A stretch of 64,000 bases of DNA, taken from a virus. Its lineage: Duplodnaviria > Caudoviricetes. The notes beneath the pieces are model-generated. The model was not told where the DNA came from. It did not search any database and worked only from the letters and a program-made list of their open reading frames with translations. A program made the position numbers and the translations under genes. The stretch's first letter is position 1, and each line of letters begins with the position of its first letter. The DNA lies in the IMG/VR virus record IMGVR_UViG_2654587515_000001, positions 1 to 64,000 of that record. The stretch is one strand, 5' to 3'. Of this stretch, positions 36,528-64,000 are shown piece after piece.

Positions 36528-37091
36528 TCACTCGCACCCAAGCACCCTCGACATGCCCTCAACTACGCTCAGCCGGATACGAGCCAATGAAAGCTCACGT
36601 TTAGCCTGCGCCAGTCCTTCCTCAGCCATTTCCTTGGCTGACGATGACACTTTGGCCTCACTGTGTAGCACGGGGAGGTCTTTCTCGGTGAAAAACTCCA
36701 ATACATGCGGCTGAAAAAGTTCAACCGGTGGCGTGGAGTAGCCCTGATGCACCGCTCGTTCGTAAATTCGCTCGAACTTGTCAGAGTTCGTGTGTTTACA
36801 GTAGGTCAGAAACCTATCTCGCATGGTCCGATCGGATACGTTAATCATGACGGCAGCATCATGAATGCGAGCGCCAAGAAAAATAGACAGGATCGCTTTT
36901 CTCGTCTCTTCACCGTAGGGGGAAAGCGTTCCTCCCTTCGCATGAAAAGTTGAGGGCGAGCCATTCTGAATCGCTTCATTCTCTGAAATCGTGACATCCG
37001 TTTCCCTGTGTCCTGCAGACTCAATAAAGCCCGTTCCAAAATCCGATTTCTCAATATGAGTTATCACAGTATGAAAGTAGTCACCTAGCAC
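36528..37091 (-). CDS. HTH-like protein preceded by a LexA box; paralogue of 53792..54211
   Basis: GTG start with AAGGAG RBS; ILSIFLGARIHDAAVMINVSDRTMRDRF helix-turn-helix-like segment. Confidence 0.75.
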   Translation of the reverse strand: MLGDYFHTVITHIEKSDFGTGFIESAGHRETDVTISENEAIQNGSPSTFHAKGGTLSPYGEETRKAILSIFLGARIHDAAVMINVSDRTMRDRFLTYCKHTNSDKFERIYERAVHQGYSTPPVELFQPHVLEFFTEKDLPVLHSEAKVSSSAKEMAEEGLAQAKRELSLARIRLSVVEGMSRVLGCE

Positions 37092-37144
37092 TACGTCTTC
37101 TCCTTTTTCTTATTATGGAAGTACAACCTTTGCACCAACATAGA

Positions 37145-37164
37145 TACTGTTTAAATATACAGTA
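37145..37164. promoter_or_regulatory. LexA (SOS) box
   Basis: TACTGTTTAAATATACAGTA fits TACTGT-N8-ACAGTA, 54 bp upstream of the 36528..37091 start. Confidence 0.88.
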
Positions 37165-37256
37165 TCTTACAGCTTTTTTATATAAATCAAAGACTCAATA
37201 AGGGCGAGTATGCATAAGAACCCGTATGTTGTATGTAGACAAAAACGTCCACAAAC

Positions 37257-38009
37257 CTAACGAATACGGAATGAGTCGGTCTTGGTGATTAGCTTGGTTG
37301 ATGAGCAAGTAGACAATAAAGTGCGCAGCTCAGACACGCTGTAGCCGGTCTTATCTCGTATGCGTGCCTTCATTGATCGAACGGTAGAAGGCGTTACGCC
37401 CAGTCTTTCTGCGGCCTCCTTGTCAGAGAGGCCCATGCGCTTACAAAAGATAAGGCGCGTTTCCGTCATGCTTAGGGGGTTTGCGAGATCGGCAAAATCG
37501 GGCACCTTGACGTGCCTAGATTCGGTAACGCGAAAGAAATCATTAATCAAAAATGTGGTGCCCATCAAATTTCCGTTGAGGTCCACTAACGGGTATTTTT
37601 GAGTTTCAATGGTATGCAATTTGACACTACTGCCGAAAAAGTAATCGCAATCTGCAAATACCATAGCTTGGCGCTCTTCCATAATGAGCTTATCTTGGAT
37701 GGCATATCCTTGAGCGACTTCATCACTGACACACGTCGGCATTTCTTCTAAGCGCTTACCATAAAAAGCGTAGCCGCAAGGCAGGTCTACCAGCTCGCGG
37801 TAATGGCAATTCATCACAAGGTACTCAGAATCTAGCCCTTTGATCCCCGCCGGCCCAGGATATCGCATCAACTCAGCCACAAGACAATCACAGAGCACGA
37901 ACTGGCCCGAGTGGATGCCGTGGTGAATCGACGTATCCTTTCGGGGATAGCATCGTCGACACAGGTGTTTGTTCTTCTCTAAGCATTCATTATAAGTATT
38001 TGCGGCCAT
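37257..38009 (-). CDS. VqmA-like PAS + LuxR-HTH transcription factor
   Basis: PAS region aligns by eye with V. cholerae VqmA (PGPAGIKGLDSEYLVMNCHYRELV vs PGYWGCKDLNSVFVYANQAYGELI; QKYPLVDLNGNLMGT vs TKTPWRDSQGKIQGT); C-terminal LSMTE...AERLGVTPSTVRSMKARIRDKTG LuxR HTH. Confidence 0.8.
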   Translation of the reverse strand: MAANTYNECLEKNKHLCRRCYPRKDTSIHHGIHSGQFVLCDCLVAELMRYPGPAGIKGLDSEYLVMNCHYRELVDLPCGYAFYGKRLEEMPTCVSDEVAQGYAIQDKLIMEERQAMVFADCDYFFGSSVKLHTIETQKYPLVDLNGNLMGTTFLINDFFRVTESRHVKVPDFADLANPLSMTETRLIFCKRMGLSDKEAAERLGVTPSTVRSMKARIRDKTGYSVSELRTLLSTCSSTKLITKTDSFRIR

Positions 38010-38205
38010 TCTACCCTCTAAAGTTTTACAAGACCGCCAACTGCAAAGCGTAATTTATATGTTAATTATTATATTAATTTATAGTGTAGGCCAATTTCGG
38101 ACAGTTTTGTGTTGATGCCCGTATTTATGTGCCTTGTTACCCTCCTGATGGACATTATTGTTTGCCCATCAAAAGGAGGATGGCGAACTTCCCGCCATAA
38201 ACTGA

Positions 38206-41200
38206 ATGTACAAATTCTTAATAACAACCCCTTTTAAATCAGAAGTTTCCATTCTGATTAACTCCGATTGGGACCAAAAATCCCCCGTCGAAATGGAAGG
38301 CTCAGACGATGACCAATTGATGATCAAAAATTTCATCCGTTTTCATGGTATGACCCCCGATGGACGTATTGCCCAGCTCCCTGAAATGACGCCAATGAGT
38401 GCTCATTACTCATTCACCACCAAAGCGGCGACAGAGCAAGGCTTCACCATTAAGTTTATTCAAGGTGAGCAAAAACCATACCCGCACCGTGATGTGGTGT
38501 TTGATAGCGCGGAAGATGACGAGCCATCGTTCACCACCAAACCGCAATCATTCAAACTTCAGGACCGATACCAATTCCAAGGTTTGCCGATTTCTATCGA
38601 AAACAAAGCAGGCACCAAGCGTGCCGGCGTGGACCCAGATGGTAGCGAATGGTCCGTCGCAATGCATTATGACTACGGATACATAAGATCGACCAAAGGC
38701 ACCGACCAAGAGGGTATTGATTGTTATATCGGGCCAAACCGTAAAGCCGATCACGTCTACATCGTCAAACAACACGCGATCGAAAAAGTGAAGCAGTGGC
38801 CATCGAAATACTGCCCACAGTGTAAAGAGCACGCTCAAGACTGCGCCTGCCCTGAATTCTTTGATGAAGACAAAGTAATGCTGGGCTTTGATAACAAAGA
38901 GCAGGCGAAAGCGGCTTACCTCAAGCAGTACGATTCCGATCTGTTCTTGGGGCCGATCTCTACGATGCGTATTGAAGACTTCAAGGAAGCGATCGCTGCG
39001 GCGGCTGGGGATGAGTTGGACTTGCCATTGCAGTTCGTGCATGACCATGCCGTTTTAGATAGCGCCACAGATGAGCAAATCCAAGCCCTGCAAAGCGCAA
39101 AAGATATCAATGAGTTAGAAGTTATTTTTAACCAGATATTCCAAGCGGCCAGTCATGATGGCGATCGTGAGTTTGGCTTGAAGGCCAGCGGCGTCAAAAC
39201 GCGAGAAACGATCAACAGCAAAGTAAAAGCGATCGTTGATCGAATAAAAGCGGCGAATTGGGACACAAGCAGCCTGACAGCAGAAGATTACGATCTGCTC
39301 GTGCAATATTCTGGCCGTGGCGGCTTGAGTGAAAACAGCCAGTATGAGTACTACACACCGACGTACATTGCCGAGGGATGCTGGGACTTGCTGGGGGCCA
39401 ATGGGTTTGATAACGGTAACGTCTTAGAGCCGTCTGCCGGTGCCGGTGTATTTAATGCCACCAAACATCAAGGCGTGAAGATGACCGCAACGGAAATCGA
39501 TCCGATCAGTTCTGCCGTCAACAAGATACTTCACCCAGAAGACAACGTATTTAACCAGTCATTTGAGAAAATGGCCGTTGAGTCACCAGATAACCACTTT
39601 GACTCGGTGATTGGTAATATCCCATTCGGCAGTGCCCGAGGCGCTTCTGCGCACGACGACCCCGATCATAAGAGTGAAAAGCTCATCGAGCGCTACTTCA
39701 TCAACCGTCTGATCGACAAAGTGAAGCCAAGCGGCCTGTTAGTGCTGGTGGTACCGGTCAATATTGTACGTGAACGTGGCAAAGTGTGGCAGAAATGGCG
39801 CGCGAAAATCAGCAAGAAAGCGGAATTCCTTGGTGCGCACAAGCTGCCAAGCAAGACGTTTGGCAAGCAAGGTACGGGTGTTGTTACCGACATCATTGTG
39901 CTGCGCAAGCACTCTAAATCAGCCGCTGAGAAAATTGCTCAACTTCCAATGGAGCAGCTGCAATCGTCCAACGTGCTTTGGGATACCTTTATTGAAGGCA
40001 AATGGTGGGAGCGCGACGGCAAGCCGTTTATTCACGGTAAGTTTGTCCCTAAAGACGCCAGCAAAGTCCGTGATGATGACAAAGTGATCCGTGATGCCAG
40101 CGTGACCGATGCAGCGCTCAAGCGCAAACTGGCGGCGAAATTCCACTCCCGTATCGACTGGGAAGCGCTCGATACCGCCGAGCCGGTGATTAAGAACTAT
40201 GTCGAAGGCGACCGTCGAATGATTGATGAGCGTATGCACGAGTTCACACGCGGCAACTGGGAACCGGTTGACACCCTGCATGGGACCACAACAGCCATTG
40301 ATGAGAAAAAGTATGGCGTTGCCTCTCTCGAAGCGCTGAAAGGGCTGCTTGAGAGTAATCACGGCCTGATGTCACTGTCGGTTAAACAGGCGTTTGCTGC
40401 GATGAAGGCATGGGGCCATTTATTTAGCAAACCGCAGAAGCAAGCCATTGAGTTTGCCATGACGCAACCCAGTGATGAGTATCGAGAGCAAATCTTCCGA
40501 GGTTCGCTGATTGGTGCTGATTTGGCGCGTTTCCAAAATGACACCAACCAAGGCAACTGGGACGCAACCGAGCAAATGCGACTGCAGGAGTTGGTGGCCA
40601 ATGAGATCAACAAATACGGCCATCCAAAACAAAACAAGGGGCTTATCCTCGCCGGTGAAAGCTCGCGCTATTTTGGCGTGTTCTCAAACGCGATGGATGA
40701 AAACGGTGAATACTCCACCTTGCTAACCGGTGATGTCAGCACGAAAGGACTGTCATTTGACGACACCAATCCTCACGCTATCGTTGAGCACCTATACCTG
40801 CGTGAAGGCATGATGCATATTACGTTGGAAGATGTGCAGCAGCTGTACAAAGGCAAGACGCCTATCCGCTCTTTGTCGGATCTGGCTGATGACAAAAACC
40901 TTGCTGTCCACCCTGACGGCCTGCTTATGCCAATGAGCCGTTTTTGCTCTGGGGATGTGTATCAGAAAGTGCTCACCCTTAGCCATGCACTCAATGTTGA
41001 AACCGATCCGAAACTCAAAGCGAAGTACCAACAACAGCTGGAAGAAATCGAACAGCGTCGCCACAAAACCGCGCCAGAAAACATTGCGTTCTCGATGCGC
41101 CACAAATGGATTGATCGCAAATACGTGCTGGAATTTATGCACGAAAAAGGCTACTCAAACCTTGATTACCTTGTCGAGAAAAAGCAGCTCGCTAAAGACG

Positions 41201-44200
41201 ATGATACGGACGAAAGCTACGTTGAAAACGTTCGAGAGCGCGATACCAGTTCACCGTTTGGTGAGTTTGTGGGCTATGACGATACCCAAGGCTTCAACAA
41301 GCAGCTGAATAACTGGCTTAACGGCGGCAACGTCACCAGCTCGAAGCAAGAGTATATCGAAGAATACAAAGAGCGTGTTTCTCGCTTAGACGAAGAGTTC
41401 CGTCTCTGGATGCAGCAGCACCAAGACATTGATGATCTAACCGAGCTATATAACCAGAAATTCAACTCATACATCCCGTTTGAACACTCAGATGCGGATT
41501 TGGGGCTGGAAGGCGTCAGCGCCATGGTTAAGCCACACGGCTACCAGTGCTCCGCTGTACGTCGCCTGTCTGAAGATGGTTCGGGTATTCTCGGGTTTGA
41601 TGTGGGCTTGGGTAAAACCTTCAGTGCCTTGGCATTGGCCGCCTACAACAAGCAAATGGGCCGAGCCAGTAAGACTCTGATCGTCGTACCTAACTCAGTG
41701 CTGGCGAACTGGTACCACGAAGCCAAGATGTTTCATGGCAATCTGGATAACGCTTTGTTCGTGGGCTTTAAGCCAAAACTGGACAAAGAAGGGCAAATCC
41801 AGCGTGAGCCGGTCAAAGACGAGCAGGGCAATCCGAAAAAGAATAAGCATACAGGTGAAATTGAATATCAGGATACGCTGATTAAAGAGAGTGCCGAAGA
41901 AATCTTCGACAAGATGCACCAGATCCCACAGACGTCAAAATCACTGGTCGTTATGACGTTTGAGAAATACAAAGAGATTCAGATGCGCCCTGTTAGCAAA
42001 CACAAGTATGCCGACAAGTGGGTGGAGAAATCGCTTATTTCCGATCAGATGGCCGCAAGTACCGTTGCTGGTGATGATTTCAGTCTGGGCAAAGGCAAAG
42101 ACAAGATCAGTTACAAAGAAGCGGTACGAAAAGAAGCCCTGCAGCAGCGCTTCCTTGAAGATGGCGGACACAAAAAAGGCGAATACCCGTACTTTGAAGA
42201 TATGGGCTTTCAATCGGTCATTATTGATGAAGCCCATGCATTTAAGAACAGCTTCAAAGCCGGTGATAAAACAGGGAACATTGCTTACCTGCCCAATCCG
42301 ACGGAATCCCAGCGTGCTATCGACATGGCAATGAAGATGGCCTACCTACGCGACCAAAACGAAGGCCGAGGCCCTGTTCTATTGTCCGCAACGCCTGTCA
42401 CCAACTCGCCGCTTGAGATTTTCAACATGCTGTCACTGGTGCTGCCGGTAGAAGAGTTTGAAAAATTCGGCGTTTATACTGCAGACGATTTTGTCCGTGT
42501 GTTCGGCAAGGTAGAAACCGTTGAGAAAATGACGGTGAAAGGCGAAATCGTACAAAAAGATGGTCTGGTTGGCTTTCAAAACTTGGATGGCCTGCGCAAC
42601 CTCTTCCACCGCTACACGCTCATGCAAAACGCTGAAGACGTAAATCTGGCCCTGCCGGATGCGCCTGAGTCTCATGAAAGCGTCGACATGACCGACGCGC
42701 AAGAGTCGGCCTACGAAGCGCTGCGAGAAGAGGCCAAAGAGGCCAGTAAGCCAGCACGCCAGCGTAGTGCGAACGCTCGCGCTCTATTTGCCGTGATGCG
42801 TGATATGGATAAAGTCACAACGGATATGGACCTGTTCAATCAGACCATGACGTTCACTTTCCCTGTATCGAAAGCGAAAGCAGTCGATCAACTCATTGCC
42901 TCGCTGCCTGCCTCAATTGAAGCTGAGCGCCTTGAACAAACCGAGGACGGGGAAGAGGTTAAGCGTAAGGTATCCATCGAGCTTGATTATCAGCGCCACG
43001 AAGAAGGGGAATCCATCGTGCTGGTGGTCCCTGACGTTTATGAGCAGGCAGTGCTTGACGGATTGAATGATGCGGCCATCAAGCTGTCAGATGTCGGCCA
43101 CCCGTTAACGCCTAAATACGCCAAACTGATCGCCAACCTGCAGGCAGAGCTGGAAGTAAACGGTAAGCAGATTGTCTTCACTGAAGAAAAAACGCAGCAC
43201 CATAAGCTCAAACGCATCATCGTGAACCAGTTGGGCCTTGATGAGAAGCAAATCGGCATCATCAACGGCGCTGACGCTGCCGGCGCGAAGCTTCAGCGCA
43301 TTGCTGACTCTTACAATGCCGGTGACATCAAAATCGTTATCTGTAACAAAAAAGCTGAGGTCGGGGTTAACCTGCAGAAAGGAACCAGTGCGATTCACCA
43401 CCTAACCCTGCCGTGGACACCAGCCTCTATCCAGCAACGCAATGGTCGTGGCGTCAGACAGGGCAATACCGCTTCTAAGGTCAGCTTGTATTACTACCTT
43501 GGTAAAGGCTCGTTTGATGGCTACCGCCTTGATCTGCTTAACAAGAAAAAGAGCTGGATGCGTGACTTGTTCAACGGTACTGAGTCAGAAGCCGTCAACG
43601 GCAACGCGATCGATAACGATGACTACCTTGATATGTTCGAAGCGGATCCGGAAGCGGCTAAGGCAAAACGCATGGAGCGTCTGGCCCAGAAGCAGGCAGA
43701 ACGTCGCCGTAAATCGGATTTGAAGTGCGCGGTCGATTTGTCTCAGGTCATTGGCCTTCGAAGCCAGTTAGCCAGCTGGGAAGCCGACAAGGCAGAAGAC
43801 TATAACCGCTTGGTTGAGCGAAAAGACAAGGCGCAAGCTTCTCTGTCGAGACTCAAGGAAAAGGGCGAGGATAGCGGCAAGGCTGAGCAGGCACTGGCGC
43901 GAGTCAACAAGATGCTGCAGGATCACGAAGCCAAGTGGCAAGATGAAAAAGCGAAACTGGAATCTCGCTTATCACAACGCCTAACCTTCCTGAAGCAAAA
44001 AGCGAGTGCCGGCGAACTGCCTTTTGACAGTGGCATTATTGAAAACCCAGAAACCGCCATCGTGGCACGGGATGGCAGCGTCCTGACCGTCGGTGATTAT
44101 CTGGAAACGGATTTCGGGGCCATTTTACGTATTGAGCAAGTCGATCAGGCCACCCGAGCTGTGCAGTATTCGGTCCCGATCGGCAGCGTGTCTTACTACT

Positions 44201-45255: not shown

Positions 45256-45342
45256 CACCTAACAGGTATCAGACAAATACTTATTTAACACTCTTAGGGT
45301 ATCTGCTATATTGTAGATACCCTATGGCAAGGAACCATAATC

Positions 45343-45759: not shown

Positions 45760-45765
45760 TGCATT

Positions 45766-53117: not shown

Positions 53118-53307
53118 CCAAAATCCCTTTAAAACAAAGTGGTGGACAGAAATTAACACTTTGATGTATGTTAATCAATAGCGTAATTAAAAACGTAATT
53201 ATTAGCGTAATTTAATACGCTTTAACTAACGGTGACGAGTAAGTTGGTGATTGGTAAGTGTGCATCCTTCATGTAGCATGGCGATAATCGTCAACTAGAT
53301 AACAAAA

Positions 53308-53604
53308 TTGATGGATATCAACATGCTAAAAAACGCTGAGGTACGTGTTCTGGTCATACTCAAGAAAGAGAAAAAGAACACGATTGCCATGACCGACCTC
53401 ACTCGACGCCTTAATGTCAATGCTGGTATCAAAGCCGCAGAGAAAAACCAGATACTTGAGTCGCTAAAAGAGCAGGGCTTGGTCGCTGTTGAACGCAAAC
53501 AGATACCGGCAATGCGTCGAACTCCCACCCTGATCACGCTGACCGAGAAAGGAAAGCAGGTGCTCAAAGGTATTGAGTCTGGTGATATCGAGTTTGAAAC
53601 CTGA
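53308..53604 (+). CDS. winged-helix (MarR/PadR-like) DNA-binding protein
   Basis: LESLKEQGLV...ITLTEKGKQVL wing motif. Confidence 0.75.
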   Translation: MMDINMLKNAEVRVLVILKKEKKNTIAMTDLTRRLNVNAGIKAAEKNQILESLKEQGLVAVERKQIPAMRRTPTLITLTEKGKQVLKGIESGDIEFET

Positions 53605-53791
53605 TTGATCTGCGAAGTTTTGATCCAGTCGAGAAAAGATTAAACAACATTTTTTTGTTGTTTCTCGCCATCGCTAAAAACGGTAAACAGTGCACAACAA
53701 AAAGATAAAAGTTTGTTGTGGCAACTAAAAGTGCTTTTGAAGTAAGCGCGAGACCACGACTTAGCGGTGACGTTGGAAGGCTGAAATCAAA

Positions 53792-54211
53792 ATGGACAAG
53801 ACCGAGACAAATCAAGAGCGTGAAATCTCACTCAGAAAAGAAGAGCAAATTGCGTGCGCCATCCTGAGAGGCGCAAAAACCGCAGATGTCGCGGCAGTAA
53901 ACGGTATGAAGTATGCCGCTTGCCGCGAAATCCTTCATAAATATTGCCGTCGTGTTAATGCTCAAGCCTATGAGCAGATTAACATTGATGCCGCCAATAA
54001 AGACTGTCACAGCCCATTCCTTGAACAGCTTCGAGAAAACAAGCACCAGTTTATTTCCCAAACTGCACCTCGTGATCCTGAACAACTTCGCCGCGAAATC
54101 GAACAGCAAAGCGAGCGCTTGACCAGCGCTCAAATCACGCTGCGCTCAGAACGTACCATTTTAAGCCAGCTGGAAGCCGAGCTTGCAGCAGCGACTCAAA
54201 AAACCAAGTAA
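53792..54211 (+). CDS. HTH-like protein with coiled-coil tail; paralogue of 36528..37091
   Basis: AILRGAKTADVAAVNGMKYAACREILHKYCRRVN aligns with the LexA-box gene product. Confidence 0.7.
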   Translation: MDKTETNQEREISLRKEEQIACAILRGAKTADVAAVNGMKYAACREILHKYCRRVNAQAYEQINIDAANKDCHSPFLEQLRENKHQFISQTAPRDPEQLRREIEQQSERLTSAQITLRSERTILSQLEAELAAATQKTK

Positions 54212-54238
54212 CACCCGAAGAAAGAAGGATCCCAGAAT

Positions 54239-55150: not shown

Positions 55151-55929
55151 AGCTAATTGAGAAGCCGTGGGCAAAAGCCGTTCGATGCCTACCGAACGAA
55201 TTAGCTCGTTATGCGCTATTTACTGTAGGTACATCACAGGAGCGTCGCTATTACACCAAGCCGGTTTTGTTGGGTCTGATTGATGGCAGTCATGCACCCA
55301 TGGAGCTGCAGTTTGTCGGGCCAGAGTTAAGACAGGATGATCTGGACGTTTTTCTTGAGCTGCTCCACTATGCGCGTGACGCCGATTTATCCGGTAAGCT
55401 CAAGTTTAAACGTGCTGAGTTAATGAAGTCTTTAGGTTGGGCCAGAACGCCATTTTATTATGAGAGATTGCTTCAATGTATGCGCCGGCTTAGCCAGTCC
55501 AACCTTGAAGGTTTGATCACTCGTAGAGACAATGGCGACTTGATTCAACATCGTTTCAACTTTAATTTGGTAGATTCGTTCGAATATAAAGACGTAAATG
55601 GTGCAATGGCTCGCTTTTGGCACTATCGTTTACCAGTGGAGTTGGTGAAGTTTTTCACGGCTTCAGGGTTTGCGAGAATCGATCTAAAACGACGACAGGC
55701 GTTAAAGAACAATCATATTGCCAAGTGGTTGCAGTTTTACTTTGCCAGCCATAAGGCAAACAACAAGTACGCCGTCTCAGTTGAAAAAGTGATGCATAGC
55801 TGTGGTTCCAAGGCGAGCGATTTGAAAACGTTTCGTCAAAAATTGAAAGCAGCGCTTAAATTGCTCAAGGCAGCTGGTATTGTAGATGCCTACATAGATA
55901 AAGATTCAGATCGGATTTTGCGTAAGTAA
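55141..55929 (+). CDS. TrfA-family replication initiator
   Basis: [33 protein letters not shown]...FRQKLKAAL motifs of TrfA-like Rep proteins; iteron array downstream. Confidence 0.85.
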
Positions 55930-55995
55930 CGCTCACGCTGTTCGGATACAACAACGTCCCAATGACAGGGGCGTTTTTATTGATAAGGTCATATT

Positions 55996-56346
55996 GTGAA
56001 TTGGATATTCATTGTTTTTAACCTCATTCCTTTGTTGCTTGGCTGGTTTGGATTTTCAGCCGGCCAGCCAGAGCTGGTGACTATTGCTATCGTGGTTATA
56101 GCGGTCCGTGCGGCGTTGGTGCTGTTTACGGTACCCAAGATGTACATCAAGTTTCAAAAGTCTGATCAGCTGACGCGACGTTATCATCGGCAGCAACTCA
56201 AAAAGCCGGCGGTGGTATTCATCGTTTCATTTATCACGCTTTGGTCGCTGGTGGTGTGGGGTGAAGAACTGGTGCTTTGCATGGTAGTGCTCAGCACAGC
56301 CATGTACCACGGCATGAGAAATCACATCGTCAGACACTCCTACTAA
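55996..56346 (+). CDS. small integral membrane protein
   Basis: Four hydrophobic segments; bounded by terminator-like hairpins. Confidence 0.7.
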   Translation: MNWIFIVFNLIPLLLGWFGFSAGQPELVTIAIVVIAVRAALVLFTVPKMYIKFQKSDQLTRRYHRQQLKKPAVVFIVSFITLWSLVVWGEELVLCMVVLSTAMYHGMRNHIVRHSY

Positions 56347-56365
56347 GCAGGTATTGAAATATGAG

Positions 56366-56398
56366 CGGCATTCTCGAAAGAGGGTGCCGTTTTTTTAT
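56366..56398 (+). terminator. rho-independent terminator
   Basis: CGGCATTCTC-GAAA-GAGGGTGCCG-TTTTTTT. Confidence 0.85.
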
Positions 56399-56498
56399 GT
56401 CTGAAAGGGAATAGACGTCGCTGTCTGGGCTTGTGGAAAAGCTGTTTATATACAGTGGTATAAGTAGTGTATATACAGTGGAATTAGACCAAAAAAAT

Positions 56499-56625
56499 GC
56501 ATAAATCGAGATACCAAAATGCATAAGTTGAGATACCCGTTTGCATAAATCGAGATACCAAAACGCATAAGTTGAGATACCCGTTTGCATAAATCGAGAT
56601 ACTAGCAAAACATAAATCGAGATAC
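56499..56625 (+). repeat. six 16-bp iterons GCATAA(ATC/GTT)GAGATAC at 22-bp period, followed by an AT-rich tract
   Basis: Copies at 56499, 56521, 56543, 56565, 56587, 56610; AT-rich region with ATAACC repeats to about 56800. Confidence 0.92.
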
Positions 56626-57021
56626 TAGAATGATTTGTTTTTCCTTTAAAAACATATTGTTATATTTTACTTCTGGTTCAACTTTCGAGGCCAACAACCA
56701 TTTTATAACCATATATAACCATTCTATAAGCCATCTTATAACCTATTAAAAAATAGAAATAATAAAGGGTTCTCTTTTTTGTTTTTTCAAAAACAGTGAA
56801 ACTACGATGAGGAAACACAAAGTGATCCCAGTTGATCTTTGTTCTTTTGAGGGTGTTTCTCGCTCTTCATTGGCTACCTGACGGCTTTTAAGGTCATGAT
56901 GAATGTCATTGCATTGCTTTTCAGTTATCGCGCTCTGTGTGCTTCTCTGGCGTTATTTATTGACGGCTGACTTAATAGGAACTCTGTGCCTATAATGTGA
57001 GCGTTAAGGGAGGGCTACGGC

Positions 57022-57561
57022 ATGAGTAAACCATTTCAAGTTTATTGGAGTGAAGACGGCCATATAACAAACAAGGCTAATTGGTTGCACTGTGTGGAGA
57101 CAGACGATCCGGTGCGAGCTGAGCAGATGTACTTCAAGCTGTGCAAAAAGATGCTTGGTAAGCAAGGGTATGTGTTCCTGCAGTCAAGTGATCCTGACTC
57201 GGTTCCTTATGGGCGATTTAATACCGGTTCTGATATTCGTTGGAATGTGGACCGCGAAGAGCAAGAGGTTCGCCGGTGGATAGTTTGGGCTATGCCCCAA
57301 GAGATCCCCTATAAGCGTTGGAAGGCGCCCACTACGTACATGGTGAAAGGGCTAAAAGCGGCTATTTTGCTTCGTTCTGGTGAAAAGATAGGGTGCGAGA
57401 TATCCGGTGAAATGATCGGGCGGGTGTTGGGGCGCAGTTCTCGTGGTATTCGTTACTGGATAGCGGAAGAGGGCGAAAACCGGAGTATTGATTACGCTAA
57501 CTGGCGTTGTTTGTTAGAAATGGCTGGATTCAAGAATAAACCGATAGCAACCTATCTGTGA
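57022..57561 (+). CDS. protein with C-terminal KorC-like HTH
   Basis: GRVLGRSSRGIRYWI...IDYANWRCLLEMAG resembles KorC-family repressors. Confidence 0.6.
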   Translation: MSKPFQVYWSEDGHITNKANWLHCVETDDPVRAEQMYFKLCKKMLGKQGYVFLQSSDPDSVPYGRFNTGSDIRWNVDREEQEVRRWIVWAMPQEIPYKRWKAPTTYMVKGLKAAILLRSGEKIGCEISGEMIGRVLGRSSRGIRYWIAEEGENRSIDYANWRCLLEMAGFKNKPIATYL

Positions 57562-57573
57562 AATTTGGATCTT

Positions 57574-58110
57574 ATGACGGAAACACAACTGGAAAACTTA
57601 GCCAAGGCCGGTAATGCGCTTGCTGGTCAGGCGCTAAGGAAGTATCGGCAAGCGAAACAGCCTCAAATGACGAACGGAAAGCCTCTCAAAGCCGTTCCAG
57701 CGAAGCGAAAGGGCGATAAAGGTCCTAGTGGGTTAGAAATGTCGTTCGCAACGCAGGTTAAGCAATCAGGGCTTCCTATGCCGCGCTGGGGGAATAACGA
57801 ATTAAAGTTTCACCCTAAGCGCCGCTGGCGTTTTGACTTCGCGTGGGAAGATCACAAGGTGGCCGTCGAGATTGAGGGTGGTACCTACAGTCACGGGCAA
57901 GAGCGATTTGACTCAGGCAAGGGGAAAAAGGTCACTCAAAAGTCGAGGCATTTAACGCCTACTGGCTTTCATGAAGACTGCATCAAATATGGTGAGGCCG
58001 CGATATTGGGGTGGTGTGTGATCCGTGTGGATGCGAAGATGATTAAAGATGGTTCGGCGCTTGCTATGCTTGAAAGGGCACTAAAAAGTAAAGTATCTAC
58101 TGAGTGTTGA
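57574..58110 (+). CDS. PD-(D/E)XK (Vsr/DUF559-like) phage endonuclease
   Basis: KFHPKRRWRFDFAW...VAVEIEGG...DCIKYGEAAILGW.V.R. Confidence 0.8.
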   Translation: MTETQLENLAKAGNALAGQALRKYRQAKQPQMTNGKPLKAVPAKRKGDKGPSGLEMSFATQVKQSGLPMPRWGNNELKFHPKRRWRFDFAWEDHKVAVEIEGGTYSHGQERFDSGKGKKVTQKSRHLTPTGFHEDCIKYGEAAILGWCVIRVDAKMIKDGSALAMLERALKSKVSTEC

Positions 58111-58151
58111 TGAAATATCTAGAGGGTATTGAGTTGATACCCCTTAGATAC

Positions 58152-58400
58152 TTAGTTGGTGTTTTCTTCGAGCAGAGCGTTTAGCTCTGTTTCGTCAGTA
58201 ATGCGCTCATTCTTGATGAGCCAGTTTACTAGGTGCTCGTATTCACCGTCGTTCATTGTTCTGAATCGAGCGCTTTCTGGGGTGGTTCGCCAAGCCCAAA
58301 TCGTGTTCACGCTTGTTTTGTAGCAAATATCAGCAACGTCTTGCGCCTTCAGCTTAAAATGTTTCTGAATTATCTTGAGTTTTTCGTTATTGGTCATCAA
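58152..58400 (-). CDS. small HTH-like protein
   Basis: LKAQDVADICYKTSVNTIWAW. Confidence 0.6.
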   Translation of the reverse strand: MMTNNEKLKIIQKHFKLKAQDVADICYKTSVNTIWAWRTTPESARFRTMNDGEYEHLVNWLIKNERITDETELNALLEENTN

Positions 58401-58454
58401 AGAGTTCCGTCAGTGTTTCGTAGAAAATAACACTCAGGCGGTACAAAGTACAGG

Positions 58455-58784
58455 TTATCGCTGAATGGCGGTCATTTGGCCGCAGTGTTGGCACTTACAA
58501 CGCATTTTATTGCGTGTTTTTTCTACTTTCTCCTGCATTTCTTGCCATCGCCAATAGAGCTGAGAGTTTTTATTGGCCAGTTGTTTCAAAACCCACATAG
58601 GGCTTAATACTTCCCCGCATAGGCCACATGCTACCGTGTCGTTGGACTCGTTGATTTTGAAGTCTCCGTGCTGACATTCAAGTCGGTGTCGGTATGTTTG
58701 AGTCTCTTTGAATATAGGCTTGTCTGTGGGTGGCTGCTTGATTCGCTTAAACTCAACAATGTTGTCGTTGTCTTCCATCATCAC
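58455..58784 (-). CDS. Zn-finger hypothetical protein
   Basis: CQH...CGLCG...CQHCG. Confidence 0.65.
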   Translation of the reverse strand: MMMEDNDNIVEFKRIKQPPTDKPIFKETQTYRHRLECQHGDFKINESNDTVACGLCGEVLSPMWVLKQLANKNSQLYWRWQEMQEKVEKTRNKMRCKCQHCGQMTAIQR

Positions 58785-58834
58785 TCCTTTGCTCTGGTAC
58801 CCTCACTGGAGAGGGTACCAATCACGGTATGGCT

Positions 58835-59653
58835 TTATTGACAGGTACAGGCTTCGGCTTCGCCGTTGTGAAGCGCTTTGCGGTTAAATTCGACCTCTGC
58901 TAACAGATCGACCAGCTCTTTGTCTGAGTTCTGCTGGTAGCCAAGAGCTTTAAGCAGAGAGCTTTTGAACATGTTTTGCTGCTCATTTGCCATATCAACT
59001 ACGCTGTGGCCCTTAGTGACGGCAGTGATCAGTGCGGAAGTGATCTCAATGAAATACTCAGCTTCATGTAAGGCATCGTATAGCGCGTGATGGAGTGGAC
59101 CTTTGCGCTCAAGGGTGTATTTAGGGTCGATGCCAAGCAGCAAACGACCAAGCAGGCAGGCTGTGCGCAGTGACTGGTTGCCTCGGAATTGCCAAGGTTG
59201 CTCGATACCGGCTTCTTCATAAGCGTGTGACAGGATAACGTTGTCAAATTCCGGACCATTCCCCATGACTTGCGCCTTTGTGCCTTCTGGCGTGTTTTCT
59301 TTGATGTAGTAGGCGATCTGGTGCAGCGCTTCAGGCAGCGATAAACGCTCATCATTTTTAGACGGTGAGAACAGTTCTGCGTAAGCCTCTGGCGACTCTT
59401 CCTTTTGTCGCTCCCAGAATGCCATGGTGCTATCTGGTTGGTCGATGGCGTCTTTGATGCGGTTTTCTTGGCCTTCATCGCTGATCAGCATGTAGGTTTG
59501 ATTGAGGATCCGGCGCTGGTAAATATCAACGGTCACTACAGAGGCTGAGAAAATGTGTGCGTCTGGGCCTTTCGCGCCGGTTTCAATGTCAGTGATATGA
59601 ATCACAGGGCTTGATTTGATGGTCTTTAGGTACTCAAGTGTCGGTAAAATCAT
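58835..59653 (-). CDS. 3'-5' exonuclease/exoribonuclease (DEDDh family)
   Basis: DIETG, GNGPEFDNVIL, HHALYDA motifs. Confidence 0.88.
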   Translation of the reverse strand: MILPTLEYLKTIKSSPVIHITDIETGAKGPDAHIFSASVVTVDIYQRRILNQTYMLISDEGQENRIKDAIDQPDSTMAFWERQKEESPEAYAELFSPSKNDERLSLPEALHQIAYYIKENTPEGTKAQVMGNGPEFDNVILSHAYEEAGIEQPWQFRGNQSLRTACLLGRLLLGIDPKYTLERKGPLHHALYDALHEAEYFIEITSALITAVTKGHSVVDMANEQQNMFKSSLLKALGYQQNSDKELVDLLAEVEFNRKALHNGEAEACTCQ

Positions 59654-60261
59654 AAATTTGTCTCGGTTTCTTCAATTTCTAGTGAATCCAAAGTGATCCT
59701 CTCACCTACAACTGTGGTTGAGTAAGTGACGGAATATTCAATTTCTAACTCATATTCGCCGCCGCAGATATCACACGTTTCTTTTCCATCGCGGGGTTCG
59801 TCTGGCTCATAGCTGGTGCCGCAGTGGGGACAGACAATTTCATCATTGTGTTTGTAGTCCCATTCGTCGTAATCGTTACTAGCAACCTTTTCCAGAGCTT
59901 CACGCTTTAGCTTCTGGTCAAGGGCGGTTTGGCATGGGGAGCATCTGAACCCCTCTCGCGTTCCCCAAGCTGATCCCACAATTTCAGATCTGTGGGTTTG
60001 GCAATCCACACAAACATTGTGCTCGTCACAAACAAAGTAGTCCCAGCCATTTGAGGTACCTAAGCACTTCTCGCAACCAACAACCCAGTACCAAGCCCCA
60101 TCAATGAACTCTGATTTTAGGCCCCTTTGTGGCGGGGTAAGTTCTAACGTTGGTAAGTCTTCAGTTTCACTGTTCCATACTGCTTTCATTGGGCCGTTGT
60201 GAATTCGGTCTGTCCATTCGGGCAGAGCTTCAGGGATGAGTATTTTGATATTTTTATCCAT
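59650..60261 (-). CDS. multi-Cys hypothetical protein
   Basis: Several CxxC pairs; CAGGA RBS before MDKNIK. Confidence 0.65.
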   Translation of the reverse strand: MDKNIKILIPEALPEWTDRIHNGPMKAVWNSETEDLPTLELTPPQRGLKSEFIDGAWYWVVGCEKCLGTSNGWDYFVCDEHNVCVDCQTHRSEIVGSAWGTREGFRCSPCQTALDQKLKREALEKVASNDYDEWDYKHNDEIVCPHCGTSYEPDEPRDGKETCDICGGEYELEIEYSVTYSTTVVGERITLDSLEIEETETNL

Positions 60262-60310
60262 GGTGATTTCCTGCTGGTGGCTGCGACGCATGGCCGCAGC
60301 CTGTTGTTGG

Positions 60311-61501
60311 TTAAGCGGCTTTAGGCTGGCGGTTTAGGTCTGACCAACTATCGTGTTGGCGTTGCCATTGCTCGACCAATTGTTCCAGTTTGGAGTAGAT
60401 TTGCTTCACGGCAGCTTCGCCAAAGCCCTTTGCAGCGGTGCCGGCTTTGTCTTTGACGATGGCACGCAGGCGGTGTGGTGGAATGTGAAGCACGCTGTAT
60501 AGACTCTGGAATCCGGCATTGTTCAATACTTCTAAGTGTTTCGGATCCAGCTGGGCATCTTCCAGATAAGTTTCTTTCGCCCACTCCATGCGCTCAATTA
60601 GGTGCGGGTGGGTGATCTCGATGCGATTAATGATGAGTTCGTGCAGTGCATCATGGATATCAGTCGGCCAGCGGTCGGCCAAGTAGTCACATGGCGGGTA
60701 GAATGGCTGCAGCCAGTCAGTCACTGAGACGGTGATATTCAATCCGTGGTTGGTTTTGACTTCGTAGTACCAATCCAGATCGTTAATGATTTTGATGGTT
60801 GATGCCTCTGGTCGGAAGGACAGGCCGTATTCAAAGACGTGGATGTAACACTTCAAAATGCCGTCGGTACCCACAAACACCTTGTTGATCACGTCGCCGT
60901 CTTTGTGCATGAGGCGAGAGCGAGCTTCGTTTAGCTCTTCGGTCAGCTGGGTGTTTGTCTGAACCATGACGTTCTTTTTCGTTTCAGCGTCCACCAGCTG
61001 GTTTTTAAGGTCACGGATCTTGGTGCGTTGCTCTTCAAGCAGCTTTTGTTTTTCGTCGTTCTTTTTGCGCTGAGCCGCGATACGGGATTTCATTTGTTCC
61101 GGCTGCATGGCCTGAAGGCGTTTCAGTTCTTCCAGTTTTTCTTTGACATTGGCTTGGGCGACTTTGGCCTGAGCTTTTTCTCGCTCGGCTTCTGCAGTGG
61201 CTTGTTTGGCCTCAAGCTCAAGTTCATCAAGGTTAGAGCGAAGTTCTGAAAGTTCACGCTCTGTGCGTGTTAAGTCTTCCTGAGTCTTTTCAAGCTCATC
61301 ACACAACGTGTTGAACTCATCAACCTCTGTGTTGTATTGCTCGATAACCAACTGCTCAGCCTGATCAATCATAGTGATGGCGGCATTGACGGATGTGTGT
61401 GCGAGACCTTCAGTTTTGTCTGCTGCAATACCCAGTTGGTAACGTGCAGGGTTCAGGGCGGACTGCAGGGCGGTTGCTACGGTGCTTTTTTCTGTTGTCA
61501 T
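60311..61501 (-). CDS. long coiled-coil protein
   Basis: About 200-aa heptad region followed by a globular C-terminus. Confidence 0.75.
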   Translation of the reverse strand: MTTEKSTVATALQSALNPARYQLGIAADKTEGLAHTSVNAAITMIDQAEQLVIEQYNTEVDEFNTLCDELEKTQEDLTRTERELSELRSNLDELELEAKQATAEAEREKAQAKVAQANVKEKLEELKRLQAMQPEQMKSRIAAQRKKNDEKQKLLEEQRTKIRDLKNQLVDAETKKNVMVQTNTQLTEELNEARSRLMHKDGDVINKVFVGTDGILKCYIHVFEYGLSFRPEASTIKIINDLDWYYEVKTNHGLNITVSVTDWLQPFYPPCDYLADRWPTDIHDALHELIINRIEITHPHLIERMEWAKETYLEDAQLDPKHLEVLNNAGFQSLYSVLHIPPHRLRAIVKDKAGTAAKGFGEAAVKQIYSKLEQLVEQWQRQHDSWSDLNRQPKAA

Positions 61502-61556
61502 TCTACTTCTCCTTCAATCTTTAAACTCGGTAGTAATAAACTAAACGGGGCGGGGC

Positions 61557-61754
61557 TTATGGCTGCATAGAGCGGTTGATTACGCTCCAAACCTTGTCGA
61601 CATAAACCTCTAACTTCTGGTCGATGCGCGTGAGCTTTGCTTGCAGCGATTTCTTGAGGCGCATAGAATAGGGAACTGGTTTACGCATTAAATAACAGTG
61701 AGCAGCTAACAGGCGCTCTGAGCGTTCCATTCTGGATAACTGTTGATTGTCCAT
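61557..61754 (-). CDS. hypothetical protein
   Basis: AAGAAGGA RBS; operon packing. Confidence 0.55.
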   Translation of the reverse strand: MDNQQLSRMERSERLLAAHCYLMRKPVPYSMRLKKSLQAKLTRIDQKLEVYVDKVWSVINRSMQP

Positions 61755-61829
61755 TGTTGGGATCCTTCTTCCTGTGTGGTGTGTAGACTATGGCGTATCA
61801 ATCTTTGGTCGGGGCGATACGCCAACCTT

Positions 61830-62058
61830 TCAAAACTTCGGCTTAATTCTGAGCTTGAATCTCTTACCGTCGGCCTTTTTGCCGGTCAGGTTAAATTCAC
61901 TATCCATATCATCAGCCAGCCTTTGAGCATCAGCGTGGAAGTCCGCGAACTGGTGTCGTGTCAGGTTATTGGCTGTGTTTCCCTGAAAATGCGCTGAAAG
62001 CACGATCACCTTGTGCTTCCCTTCTCCGTTTGCATGTCTTTGTAGTGTTGTCATCAAC
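61830..62058 (-). CDS. hypothetical protein (start uncertain; track ORF extends to 62138)
   Basis: First ORF of the leftward operon. Confidence 0.45.
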
Positions 62059-62147
62059 ATTTTCCTGTTGTCGATAGTTAGAAAATCTGGTGTTAACGTC
62101 ACCGAGACAGTTAGCGCTCTTCGTGCTAACGACGCCAATATATATCT

Positions 62148-62172
62148 AAATCCTGTACAATGTACAGGATTT
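62148..62172. promoter_or_regulatory. 25-bp palindrome, copy 1 (operator or recombination site candidate)
   Basis: AAATCCTGTACA-A-TGTACAGGATTT in the divergent intergenic region. Confidence 0.7.
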
Positions 62173-62225
62173 TTTTAAAAAGGTTGAGCCAAAGATAAAA
62201 GCAACTCAGCCAATTGGGACTCTCA

Positions 62226-63404
62226 ATGCAGACACTTACAGTCAGTTTTTCTGAATCATCCGTTAAGCGAGCGCTAAAAAACGCCGAAGGCTACGAAATC
62301 AAGGTTTCGTCAAAGCCCACGGTATTGTTGCGTCCGCATAAAGGGTTAGAGAGGGGAACTTGGTATCTGCGTAAGGGGGAGAAATATCACCCGCTTGGGG
62401 TGTATCCGGTTGTGCCGGTCTCTCTCGTAAAAGAGCGACTGCCTCACATCGTGTTTGACCTCTCGATGAATCCAGACGCTAAGGTTGAGATTATCAGTGG
62501 CTTCCAGAAAGTGACGGATTTACTCAGCTGGTACTGTGAGCGTGCTCAGTCTGACCGCGAGCTATCCAAAAAGCGCAAGGCGACGGTGAGGTCGGTGATC
62601 AACAAGCACCTGATCCCCATGCTGGGGGATAAGCTGATTGACGAGCTGAATCATGCTTGCATTGATGATGCGCTGATCTGGCCGCTTCAAAGCAAATACT
62701 CCCTGTCCAATGTGAGACTGATATTTTCTGCGTTGAAGGCCGCTTTTAAGCTGGCCGCTAAGCAGAACCGTATCAACGCTAATCCACTGGCTGACCTGCA
62801 ATTCACCGATTTCATTCAGAAACGCATTAATCCCAAAGATGCCCAGATCAGGGCCGCTGATATTCCGGCGGTACTGGCGGCGCTGGTGGACTGCCACTAC
62901 AGCACCAGAATGCTGATTTTGATGATGCTCCTATTTGGTACCCGCATTGGTGAAACCCGTCAGGCGAAGTGGTCCCATATTGATGATGATTATTGGCACT
63001 TACCGGCAGGCCATACCAAAACCAAGCAATCTCACCGCTTGCCATTAACTGAGCCGGTTAAAGCGTTGCTTGATGCATACCGCAATACCCAGAAAGCGAA
63101 GGGCTACACGGGGCAATTCCTCTTTCCTAATGACGATCGTAGTGGTCAGTGCGTGCCGGCCAGTACGGCGAGCACTCAAATTAAGCGTATTTCCTCTGGG
63201 AACTGGACCGCTCATGACCTGCGAAAAGTAGCGCGAACGGTGTGGGCAGACCTGGGGGTGGATTACATGGTAGGTGAAATGCTGTTGAACCATGCCCTGA
63301 GCAAATTGGACAAGACCTACATTCATACTCACGTCGAACACAAGATGAAAGAAGCCCTCAGCCAATACCACGACTGGCTAAAAGAGCAGGGCCTTTCGTT
63401 CTAA
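62226..63404 (+). CDS. tyrosine recombinase/integrase with N-terminal arm-binding-like domain
   Basis: FGTRIGE (R), HTKTK (K), HDLRK (HxxR), LLNH (H), KTYIH (Y); all catalytic residues present. Confidence 0.92.
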   Translation: MQTLTVSFSESSVKRALKNAEGYEIKVSSKPTVLLRPHKGLERGTWYLRKGEKYHPLGVYPVVPVSLVKERLPHIVFDLSMNPDAKVEIISGFQKVTDLLSWYCERAQSDRELSKKRKATVRSVINKHLIPMLGDKLIDELNHACIDDALIWPLQSKYSLSNVRLIFSALKAAFKLAAKQNRINANPLADLQFTDFIQKRINPKDAQIRAADIPAVLAALVDCHYSTRMLILMMLLFGTRIGETRQAKWSHIDDDYWHLPAGHTKTKQSHRLPLTEPVKALLDAYRNTQKAKGYTGQFLFPNDDRSGQCVPASTASTQIKRISSGNWTAHDLRKVARTVWADLGVDYMVGEMLLNHALSKLDKTYIHTHVEHKMKEALSQYHDWLKEQGLSF

Positions 63405-63433
63405 CCTCCTCAAAATTTCATATCAATTAAAAT

Positions 63434-63458
63434 AAATCCTGTACAATGTACAGGATTT
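63434..63458. promoter_or_regulatory. 25-bp palindrome, copy 2
   Basis: Identical to 62148..62172; 41 bp upstream of the AphA-like ATG. Confidence 0.7.
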
Positions 63459-63499
63459 TGTTATATGGTGTTTCCAATTTCCAAAAAAGGAGTGTCGAA

Positions 63500-64000
63500 A
63501 TGCTGTTAAATGAATTGCCTATCCACCTACTTTCTCTGCTGTCAGAGCACAAAAAAGCCACCGGTTACGAGCTAACCAAAATGATGAGCGAAAGCCGTCT
63601 GTGGCGTGCATCCCACCAGCAAATTTACCGTTCACTAAACAAGATGGCCGACGATGGCTTTTTGGTGTTCAAAGACGATCCACAAGAGGGCAAGCCAGAC
63701 CGTAAGGTCTATTCGCTGACCGCTGAAGGGATTGCCAAGTTCAACGAGGCGGTAGAGAGTGCCACCCCTTCAATCAAGTCATTACACAGCATTCGCACCA
63801 TCATGCTGAATGTAGGTAATCAGAAGTACTTTGAAGAGCTGCTGGAACAGCTGAGAGCTGCCATCGAGAAAACAGAGCAGCTGCTTGAAAAAACGGAAAA
63901 CCCGTCAGAACGAATCGCTATGCAGCGCGAGATTTACATCAACCGTGCTGAAGAAAGCTATTGCGTGGATGCCTTGGCATACCTGCAAGAATCCAAGCGC
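63500..64000 (+). CDS. AphA-like PadR-family transcription factor, 3' end runs off the window
   Basis: Absent from the ORF track; hand translation gives ATGYELTK...WRASHQQIYRSLNKMADDGFLVFKDDPQEGKPDRKVYSLTAEG vs Vibrio AphA ATGYDITK...WKASHQQVYRELNKM...EPQEGKPDRKVYSITQAG as recalled. Confidence 0.88.
   Translation, partial: MLLNELPIHLLSLLSEHKKATGYELTKMMSESRLWRASHQQIYRSLNKMADDGFLVFKDDPQEGKPDRKVYSLTAEGIAKFNEAVESATPSIKSLHSIRTIMLNVGNQKYFEELLEQLRAAIEKTEQLLEKTENPSERIAMQREIYINRAEESYCVDALAYLQESKR

Follow-up and report, generated by a model that had tools for sequence, protein, structure and literature searches.

How might a P1-like phage-plasmid of Vibrio join a chemical cue to DNA damage in the control of one gene? 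We asked this of the first 64,000 nucleotides (nt) of the virus record IMGVR_UViG_2654587515_000001 (Duplodnaviria; Caudoviricetes), hereafter the window, in which a gene for a PAS-LuxR protein lies next to a gene preceded by a LexA box. A sequence-only reading had proposed for this element one lifestyle circuit of three parts: a VqmA-like receptor for the autoinducer 3,5-dimethylpyrazin-2-ol (DPO), an SOS input through LexA, and a PadR-family mimic of AphA that reads or rewires the low-cell-density programme of the host. Our analysis supports that circuit in part and points to a smaller unit. The receptor and a LexA-repressed promoter beside its gene may jointly drive a switch regulator of 187 amino acids (aa) for lytic development or lytic-type replication, a proposal that we consider about equally likely to be right or wrong; a two-input switch gene as such is plausible.

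The module lies on the minus strand and is listed here in its direction of reading. Its two putative promoters are called promoter P1 and promoter P2, as distinct from phages P1 and P2.

38010-38205, no strand: divergent promoter region between the PAS-LuxR gene and darB, containing a conserved imperfect inverted repeat at 38141-38176
37257-38009, minus strand: PAS-LuxR one-component regulator of 250 aa, a distant VqmA relative by sequence, fold and family alignment
37234-37253, minus strand: 20-bp palindrome TGTGGACGTTTTTGTCTACA, candidate PAS-LuxR operator, directly 3′ of the PAS-LuxR stop codon
37207-37212, minus strand: -10-like hexamer CATACT of the predicted promoter P1, 21 nt past the palindrome
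37185-37190, minus strand: -35-like TTGATT of the predicted proximal promoter P2, invariant in five of six elements
37145-37164, read on the minus strand: LexA (SOS) box TACTGTATATTTAAACAGTA, conserved, matching the consensus at 18 of 20 positions
36528-37091, minus strand: 187-aa protein (phrog_25672) with helix-turn-helix (HTH) and coiled coil, candidate switch regulator; GTG start with a good ribosome-binding site

The region around the module (36400-38300) was 97.7% identical to p0908, a Vibrio plasmid, and matched six more circular, non-mobilizable Vibrio plasmids of 74-97 kb at 74-97% identity. The hosts of the matching plasmids were V. parahaemolyticus, V. campbellii, V. cholerae and V. 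vulnificus. The same seven plasmid records were matched by the other end of the element (61800-64000). Receptor homologs with 58-60% identity were found in two other element types. The first is a 41-kb P2-like V. cyclitrophicus phage (Vibrio phage 10N.237.312.C11_PE002A), in which the operon 3′ of the receptor gene ends in the replication initiator gene repA. The second, called trfA-type here, is represented by the metagenomic/assembly contigs L025 and L027, with the gene order receptor, 94-aa winged HTH (wHTH) protein, 138-aa ortholog of a paralog of the 187-aa protein, rdgC and trfA.

The receptor is a distant relative of VqmA

The PAS-LuxR protein gave weak Pfam matches to PAS_4 and HTH families, and its sole significant sequence matches in PDB were VqmA structures, from phage (7dwm, E 8.8e-6) and from V. 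cholerae (6ugl, 6kju and 6ide). It has the architecture of the VqmA family, an N-terminal PAS domain followed by a C-terminal LuxR-type HTH, with the VqmA fold. For its AlphaFold model (mean predicted local distance difference test score 77, with the PAS core above 90), the top eight Foldseek matches were all VqmA chains (E 4e-13 to 8e-11) and the next was EL222 (4e-6); the template-modelling score against the VqmA chains was ~0.5 across the two mobile domains. With all of the best sequence and fold matches in VqmA, the resemblance noticed in the sequence-only reading held.

The relationship is a distant one. Identity to VqmA-Phage of VP882 (gp56) was 24%. A word-based search for homologs returned 8 clusters, and a profile search of 1.84 billion representatives returned 4 family matches at E < 1e-10 and, beyond those, ~30 PAS-LuxR proteins of ~230-250 aa at E 1e-9 to 1e-3; the V. 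cholerae-type VqmA representative matched the family profile at E 6e-4 only. In the tree, the element proteins formed their own clade on a long branch (1.9 changes per site), beside and not within the group of V. cholerae VqmA and VqmA-Phage (Shimodaira-Hasegawa-like approximate likelihood ratio test, SH-aLRT, only 87).

DPO is held in VqmA by F67, F99 and K101 (10.1101/2019.12.19.881847). These residues correspond to Y102, T136 and K138 of the PAS-LuxR protein, all three of which are invariant within its family, and K23, Y36, D71 and D85 of VqmA are also retained. However, K23, D71 and K101 are near-invariant throughout the PAS-LuxR superfamily, and therefore the retained pocket residues are of little use in telling whether the ligand is DPO. 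The receptor might bind DPO, a related pyrazinone or something new.

All full-length homologs carry an N-terminal CxxC-N19-CxC segment with nearby His residues (37884-38009, residues 1-42), which has no counterpart in VqmA and is present in one distant fragment (P0116). It may be a zinc or redox module, and might add a metal or redox input to the receptor. The RefSeq form of the p0908 protein is shorter, at 207 aa. In the divergent promoter region upstream, the conserved imperfect inverted repeat CCTCCTGATGGACA / TGCCCATCAAAAGG (38141-38176) may be a control site of the receptor gene itself.

A palindrome and a candidate promoter follow the receptor gene

VqmA, acting at PvqmR, and VqmA-Phage, acting at Pqtip, are both activators of a single adjacent promoter, which they recognise by a G-rich palindrome (PMC8284805). 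No such VqmA-type operator (GG-N6-CC or GG-N9-CC) was found in either of the intergenic regions flanking the receptor gene of the window. Directly 3′ of the gene lies the palindrome TGTGGAC-N6-GTCTACA, of the general form TGTRGAC-N6-GTCTACA. The window and each sister plasmid have one good copy only, always in this position. In all three element types (P1-like, P2-like and trfA-type), the half-sites TGTRGAC/GTCTACA are kept while the 6-nt spacer varies, and 21 nt past the palindrome stands CATACT, CACACT or CATAAT, with unrelated DNA in between.

In the window, the spacing to CATACT puts the dyad centre of the palindrome near -43.5. Class II LuxR-type activators use a dyad position near -43.5. 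This geometry, together with the conservation across three element types, led us to read the palindrome as, most likely, the target promoter of the receptor itself. The operator would be confined to the closer clade, because a distant PAS-LuxR relative (P0114) lacks a TGTAGAC-type palindrome after its gene. The whole 165-bp spacer between the receptor gene and the 187-aa gene was conserved above the surrounding coding DNA (overall identity 74%).

A LexA box precedes the neighbouring gene

The short pattern CTGT-N8-ACAG, here CTGTTTAAATATACAG, occurs once in the window (37147-37162), for a chance expectation of 0.89 per window. The longer 20-mer is more telling: it agrees with the consensus TACTGTATATATATACAGTA at 18 of 20 positions, which none of 100 shuffles reached, and it is kept in six elements despite diverged flanks and a diverged downstream leader. 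The GTG at 37091, with its AGGAG ribosome-binding site, begins 56 nt downstream of the box, and the box overlaps the -10 candidates of the predicted promoter P2 (GATACT or TAAGAT). A CTGT-N8-ACAG pattern, an AT-rich core and an overlap with a candidate promoter, as expected of a LexA-regulated promoter, are thus all present. Two statements of the sequence-only reading, that a LexA box precedes the gene after the receptor gene and that the two genes are direct neighbours, were confirmed, and other members of the family keep this arrangement.

A LexA box recurs in the P2-like phage, which speaks for the SOS input. There, the box (TACTGTGAATATATACAGTG) stands before a 76-aa open reading frame (ORF) further downstream of the receptor gene, more than 600 bp from the palindrome and with an antisense cI-like gene in between. 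In the trfA-type contigs L025 and L027, no LexA box was found, though the palindrome is present. The stretch of the P2-like phage that separates its PAS-LuxR gene from its LexA-box gene holds a 109-aa ORF of the Cro/CI HTH type that lacks annotation (5886-6215, minus strand). It is convergent with the predicted receptor-dependent promoter, and antisense control of a repressor gene is possible.

The LexA-box gene encodes a predicted DNA-binding regulator

The model of the 187-aa protein begins with a short helix and a disordered, variable linker; then come a confidently modelled helical domain (residues ~55-140) and a C-terminal helix of 35 residues. The protein had no Pfam match, and a Foldseek search of its model against PDB gave nothing at E 0.001 or better. 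VIA-align of the model, however, returned a modest but consistent set of LuxR/FixJ/GerE DNA-binding domains (DegU, VqmA-Phage, NarL, RcsB, TraR and GerE; Z 5.3-5.8 with 62-68 residues aligned). Because of this set of matches, we take the product as modelled to be a DNA-binding regulator of the LuxR/GerE type, not a Qtip-like peptide. A Qtip-type output, as in VP882, does not fit this 187-aa HTH protein.

The protein is confined to this element family. It had no tblastn match in 50,697 phage records, and its profile had none in phage P1, VP882 or the P2-like phage. Within the window it has a weak paralog (pairwise E 8e-6), at the following position.

53792-54211, plus strand: 139-aa paralog of the 187-aa protein (HTH and coiled coil), second gene of an operon of wHTH, HTH-coiled coil, rdgC and trfA genes

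In the window (53150-53800), repeated ACGTAAT(T/A) motifs precede the 93-aa wHTH gene (~53324-53604) that heads this operon. The motifs are also found before the orthologous operon in L025 (3330-3420) and may serve the second replicon as operators or as iterons.

A two-input switch gene and its alternatives

From the gene identities, folds, motif conservation and synteny described above, we infer a series of binding events, promoters and outputs as follows. A minus-strand regulatory module of two genes lies between the dar antirestriction operon and darB. The first gene encodes a PAS-LuxR receptor of the VqmA superfamily, which would respond to a small molecule. A receptor dimer would bind TGTGGAC-N6-GTCTACA just past its own stop codon and, from about -43.5, activate promoter P1 (-10 CATACT), with transcription starting near 37200. 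Promoter P2, probably of the sigma-70 type, would lie ~45 nt further downstream, starting near 37154, with its -10 region under the LexA box. Both promoters would read into the second gene, that for the 187-aa HTH and coiled-coil protein, which would be switched on when LexA is cleaved upon DNA damage or when the cue of the receptor is present. Its product might then start lytic development or lytic-type replication. The tie to replication comes from the paralogy with the trfA-operon protein and from the receptor gene reading, elsewhere, into that operon or toward RepA.

Several observations weigh against this scheme. The palindrome lies ~85 nt upstream of the start of the LexA-regulated promoter, and therefore no direct activation of promoter P2 by the receptor is possible; the -10 hexamer of promoter P1 (CATACT) is weak; and the palindrome could instead form a hairpin or serve autoregulation. 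Transcripts from promoter P1 might be stopped by LexA bound downstream, and both inputs would then be needed (AND instead of OR logic). The fold match of the 187-aa protein is modest (Z < 6; Foldseek E > 0.1), and tblastn found no homolog of C1, Coi or Lxc of phage P1 as a target for it. In V. vulnificus p48/10, the homologous gene has a 1-nt insertion, an extra A in the HTH-coding part, and is split into two annotated ORFs; the copy in V. cholerae pE7G is otherwise nearly identical, yet intact. The insertion may be a sequencing error, or it may be a real inactivation and the gene dispensable. Short contigs from RNA libraries (four runs) cover parts of both the receptor gene and the 187-aa gene. 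In two of the libraries, cover of the 187-aa gene reaches to 37133 and 37144, and no contig spans the gap to the receptor gene. Neither strand nor start nor level of expression can be read from such contigs, which may also stem from carried-over DNA; as far as they go, they favour P2 as the active promoter in those samples.

A bolder version of the two-input switch gene covers all three element types. The receptors would form a second, independent phage-borne lineage of the VqmA superfamily, and receptor and promoter would be a cassette moving between P1-like, P2-like and trfA-type phage-plasmids. In the P1-like elements, the cassette would have been joined by a tandem LexA promoter, and the HTH gene would compute cue OR damage at transcription initiation and launch lytic replication. 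We put this version forward tentatively and regard it as doubtful in its entirety.

An alternative is that the module governs not the decision between lysis and lysogeny as such but replication or copy number of the plasmid prophage, through activation of the TrfA replicon, or else the antirestriction genes next to the module. It draws on the operon 3′ of the receptor gene ending in an initiator gene in two contexts (repA in the P2-like phage and rdgC-trfA in L025/L027), on the paralogy of the 187-aa protein with the product of the second gene of the trfA operon, and on the position of the module between ddrB and darB. Lytic replication, however, is part of induction in P1-like phages, and hence this explanation overlaps with that of a switch gene. 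The LexA box and the inducibility of pVv01 by mitomycin C indicate prophage induction, and no operator is common to the region of the 187-aa gene and the trfA or darB promoters. We consider a role in replication or antirestriction alone unlikely, though worth keeping in mind.

Another possibility is that the two genes are functionally unlinked neighbours, with the palindrome a 3′ hairpin or autoregulatory site and the 187-aa gene simply SOS-induced. The RNA contigs that never bridge the two genes, the distant LexA box of the P2-like phage beyond the antisense cI-like gene, and the trfA-type contigs with a palindrome and no LexA box are all as expected from this. Against it stand the missing U-tract after the hairpin and the -10-like hexamer at fixed spacing, which all three element types keep despite differing DNA in between. 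The unusual conservation of the whole spacer, and the fact that the receptor gene always faces a regulatory or replication operon, also speak for a functional link. We therefore find an accidental neighbourhood rather improbable and retain the two-input switch gene as the best explanation.

The PadR gene is most likely a separate local regulator

The third part of the proposed circuit lies 25 kb from the receptor module, at the end of the window.

62150-62170, no strand: first full copy of a 21-bp palindrome, identical to that at 63436-63456, located upstream of the integrase gene in a divergent promoter region
62214-63404, plus strand: tyrosine recombinase (integrase) of 396 aa, distinct from the Cre ortholog and bracketed by the palindromes
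63436-63456, no strand: 21-bp palindrome ATCCTGTACAATGTACAGGAT, candidate PadR operator, 44 nt upstream of the padR start codon
63500-64000, plus strand: PadR-family regulator with AphA as its nearest characterised relative; ~4 codons are lost at the window end

The complete PadR protein has 170 aa (CP046830), and its gene is followed by yejK and a long co-directional operon. It matched Pfam PadR at E 1.7e-13, and its best PDB match was AphA (1yg2, E 3.1e-20 versus 2.9e-9 for the next PadR structure). The motifs SHQQ.Y and PQEGKPDRKVY are common to both proteins, so that the AphA signature seen in the sequence-only reading was upheld, and the recognition helix (11 of 13 residues) and the wing (12 of 12) are almost the same. 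Identity to the V. parahaemolyticus protein was 39%, and the closest relatives outside the element clade were Vibrionaceae AphA proteins (35-43% identity). In a tree whose sampling was biased by the word-based search, the element proteins formed a separate clade on a long branch, and the AphA proteins were monophyletic apart from one unplaced long-branch row (SH-aLRT 94). No match to PF10400 (Vir_act_alpha_C) was found in the PadR protein at E 0.01. Its homologs in the element clade have PF03551 only, whereas full-length (~180-aa) AphA-like matches carry PF10400.

These results bear on two further claims. Generic positions for both proteins, far from VqmA and AphA, would have spoken against the proposed circuit. 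The receptor does group next to VqmA, but outside it, and the PadR protein falls outside the AphA clade. Neither tree supports a recent capture of nodes of the host quorum-sensing network: the receptor is 24% identical to its phage counterpart and forms its own deep clade, and the PadR protein is 39% identical to AphA, in a separate clade and without PF10400.

The 21-bp palindrome has two full copies in direct orientation and none elsewhere in the element. It is conserved in three elements and invariant between elements only ~72% identical overall. The AphA box consensus is ATATGCA-N6-TGCATAT (PMC3440409). Matches to it in the window with up to 3 mismatches numbered 2, versus 3.0 expected, and both were in coding DNA. 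By eye, TTATGCATACTCGCCCTTAT at 37217-37198 (minus strand) differs from the AphA box at 4 positions; this is at chance level and was not counted. The 21-bp palindrome has an odd symmetry unlike that of the AphA box, despite the AphA-like recognition helix and wing, and therefore the assignment of this protein to this site may be wrong. With that reservation, the PadR protein most probably acts separately and locally, as an autoregulator that would control the integrase-padR-yejK operon through the two palindromes; given the shared DNA-reading residues, it could conceivably act on host AphA targets as well.

Other functions of the palindromes were considered. That they form an intrinsic terminator was rejected for the upstream copy, which sits between divergent gene starts. 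Their 9-7-9 geometry makes recombination sites possible, but recombination between two copies in direct orientation would remove the integrase gene. A third, partial copy, CCTGTACTTTGTACCG (58439-58453), was noticed just upstream of the 82-aa phrog_7950 gene. PadR-family regulators with ~28% identity to that of the element were also seen in more than 100 lytic Vibrio siphophages (SSP002-like, ~76 kb) and in 8 Listeria phages.

A circuit that joins DPO, SOS and an AphA mimic thus appears improbable: the retained K23, Y36, D71, D85 and K101 and the change of F67 to Tyr, the nearly complete AphA-like recognition helix and wing, and the joint presence of receptor and PadR genes in seven of seven p0908-like plasmids (with the LexA box checked and present in five), a co-occurrence that the sequence-only reading had asked to be surveyed, are outweighed by pocket residues that are kept superfamily-wide, F99 changed to Thr, a candidate operator unlike the G-rich VqmA sites, AphA-box matches at chance level, and a PadR protein of a separate clade, without PF10400, that is present in four of four P1-like records tested and absent from the receptor-bearing P2-like phage. 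The distance of 25 kb and a palindrome that is not an AphA box likewise separate the padR gene from the two-gene module.

The element is P1-like with an apparently different immunity system

p0908 and pVv01 are P1-like plasmid prophages, and mitomycin C treatment of pVv01 yields myovirus particles (PMC4132613), an indirect pointer to an SOS input in this family. The window has the marks of this group: the dar operon, DarB-Ulx, a Cre-like recombinase, replicon and partition genes, and myovirus structural genes. Hdf, DarA, DdrA and a DdrB-like protein are encoded at 32299-36482 in the order of phage P1 (hdf-darA-ddrA-ddrB); DarB, of 2349 aa, is followed by an Ulx homolog, again a P1-type arrangement. 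A Cre ortholog of 380 aa, presumably VCre of p0908, is encoded at 3364-4506 and was 30% identical to Cre of phage P1 by tblastn. ParA, a Rep3-type initiator and the second replicon, rdgC-trfA, are also encoded. With the p0908-family match, these genes bear out the assignment to P1-like elements.

Relatives of the phage P1 immunity genes were a different matter. In tblastn searches of the window and an overlapping 20 kb of a sister plasmid, C1, Coi and Lxc gave chance-level matches only (E > 0.3), a result that applies to all but ~6 kb of the element and that remote homologs could escape. The c8, Cra, Hxr, Mat and Ref queries gave nothing by tblastn against the window, and Cre and Ulx were the sole phage P1 queries with a match. 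To judge from these searches, the immunity system differs from that of phage P1. Two repressor candidates were noticed: the 82-aa phrog_7950 protein, labelled "transcriptional repressor" (58152-58400, minus strand), and the 93-aa wHTH protein at ~53324-53604.

Elsewhere in the window (7430-7958, minus strand), two ORFs of 76 aa and 107 aa share 26 nt and run against the direction of all their neighbours. By sequence appearance alone, they resemble an addiction pair of an antitoxin and a RelE/ParE-type toxin.

Comparison with known phage switches

VP882 and its relatives are linear plasmid phages with a VqmA-Phage/Qtip module (PMC8284805, PMC12802170). The concept of pairing a phage receptor for a host signal with an SOS input is already known from them (PMC12802170, PMC8284805). 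The present module shares with theirs a phage-borne PAS and LuxR-HTH receptor of VqmA fold and, as predicted here, one adjacent palindromic target promoter and DNA damage as a second input to induction, the latter from the LexA box. In other respects the two differ. The receptor of the element belongs to a separate clade and has the extra N-terminal CxxC...CxC, and its candidate operator is TGTRGAC-N6-GTCTACA in place of the VP882-type GG-N9-CC. The target gene is in tandem with the receptor gene, whereas in VP882 the two are divergent (gp55/gp56), and no VP882-type divergent small ORF (< 100 aa) for inactivating cI was found beside the receptor gene. The output would be a 187-aa HTH protein instead of the 79-aa Qtip, and the SOS input would come from a LexA box at this very gene, where VP882 relies on cleaving a cI repressor. 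The carriers are circular P1-like and P2-like elements, in contrast to linear plasmid phages. The module as modelled thus stands apart in its lineage of receptor, in its operator, in the tandem promoters that tie it to a LexA box, in its HTH output and in its circular carriers.

LexA-controlled phage genes include tum of coliphage 186 and the antirepressor genes of Gifsy and N15. The record of phage P1 annotates a LexA site on its P2coi promoter. As at P2coi-coi, the SOS box of the element overlaps the predicted promoter of one phage gene whose product may trigger induction; unlike Coi, the product is predicted to be a LuxR/GerE-type DNA-binding protein and has no similarity to Coi. Unlike the known LexA-controlled switch genes, the 187-aa gene would have a second, receptor-type promoter upstream of the SOS promoter. 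The sequence-only reading knew of no description of its combination in P1-like phages. For a LexA input as such, the annotated site at P2coi is a precedent; in the literature that we could cover, which is incomplete, we found no paper on a VqmA-like or AphA-like gene in p0908-like or P1-like phage-plasmids.

The PadR protein resembles AphA (1yg2; PMC3440409) in its wHTH, its nearly identical recognition helix and wing, its similar length and its probable autoregulation. It differs in its 39% identity over 128 residues, its separate clade, the lack of PF10400, its place on a phage-plasmid downstream of an integrase gene, and a candidate operator (ATCCTGTACAATGTACAGGAT) unlike ATATGCA-N6-TGCATAT. 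The element as a whole is like phage P1 in the gene order of the dar operon, in darB-ulx, in its Cre ortholog and in its plasmid partition and replication genes, and unlike it in that no C1, Coi or Lxc homolog was detected by tblastn.

Implications for vibriophages

These "P1-like" elements have no recognisable immunity system of phage P1. The operator, promoters and target gene predicted here are all of short, defined extent, and the model is therefore directly testable. Phage "eavesdropping" on bacterial signals has few worked examples, chiefly the VP882-like linear plasmid phages. If the two-input switch gene is real, a distinct receptor lineage would serve this purpose in circular P1-like and P2-like vibriophages, and signal and SOS response would be combined by tandem promoters on one gene. 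As members of the p0908 family are found in V. parahaemolyticus, V. cholerae, V. vulnificus and V. campbellii, the cues for induction would affect the spread of prophages in these species.

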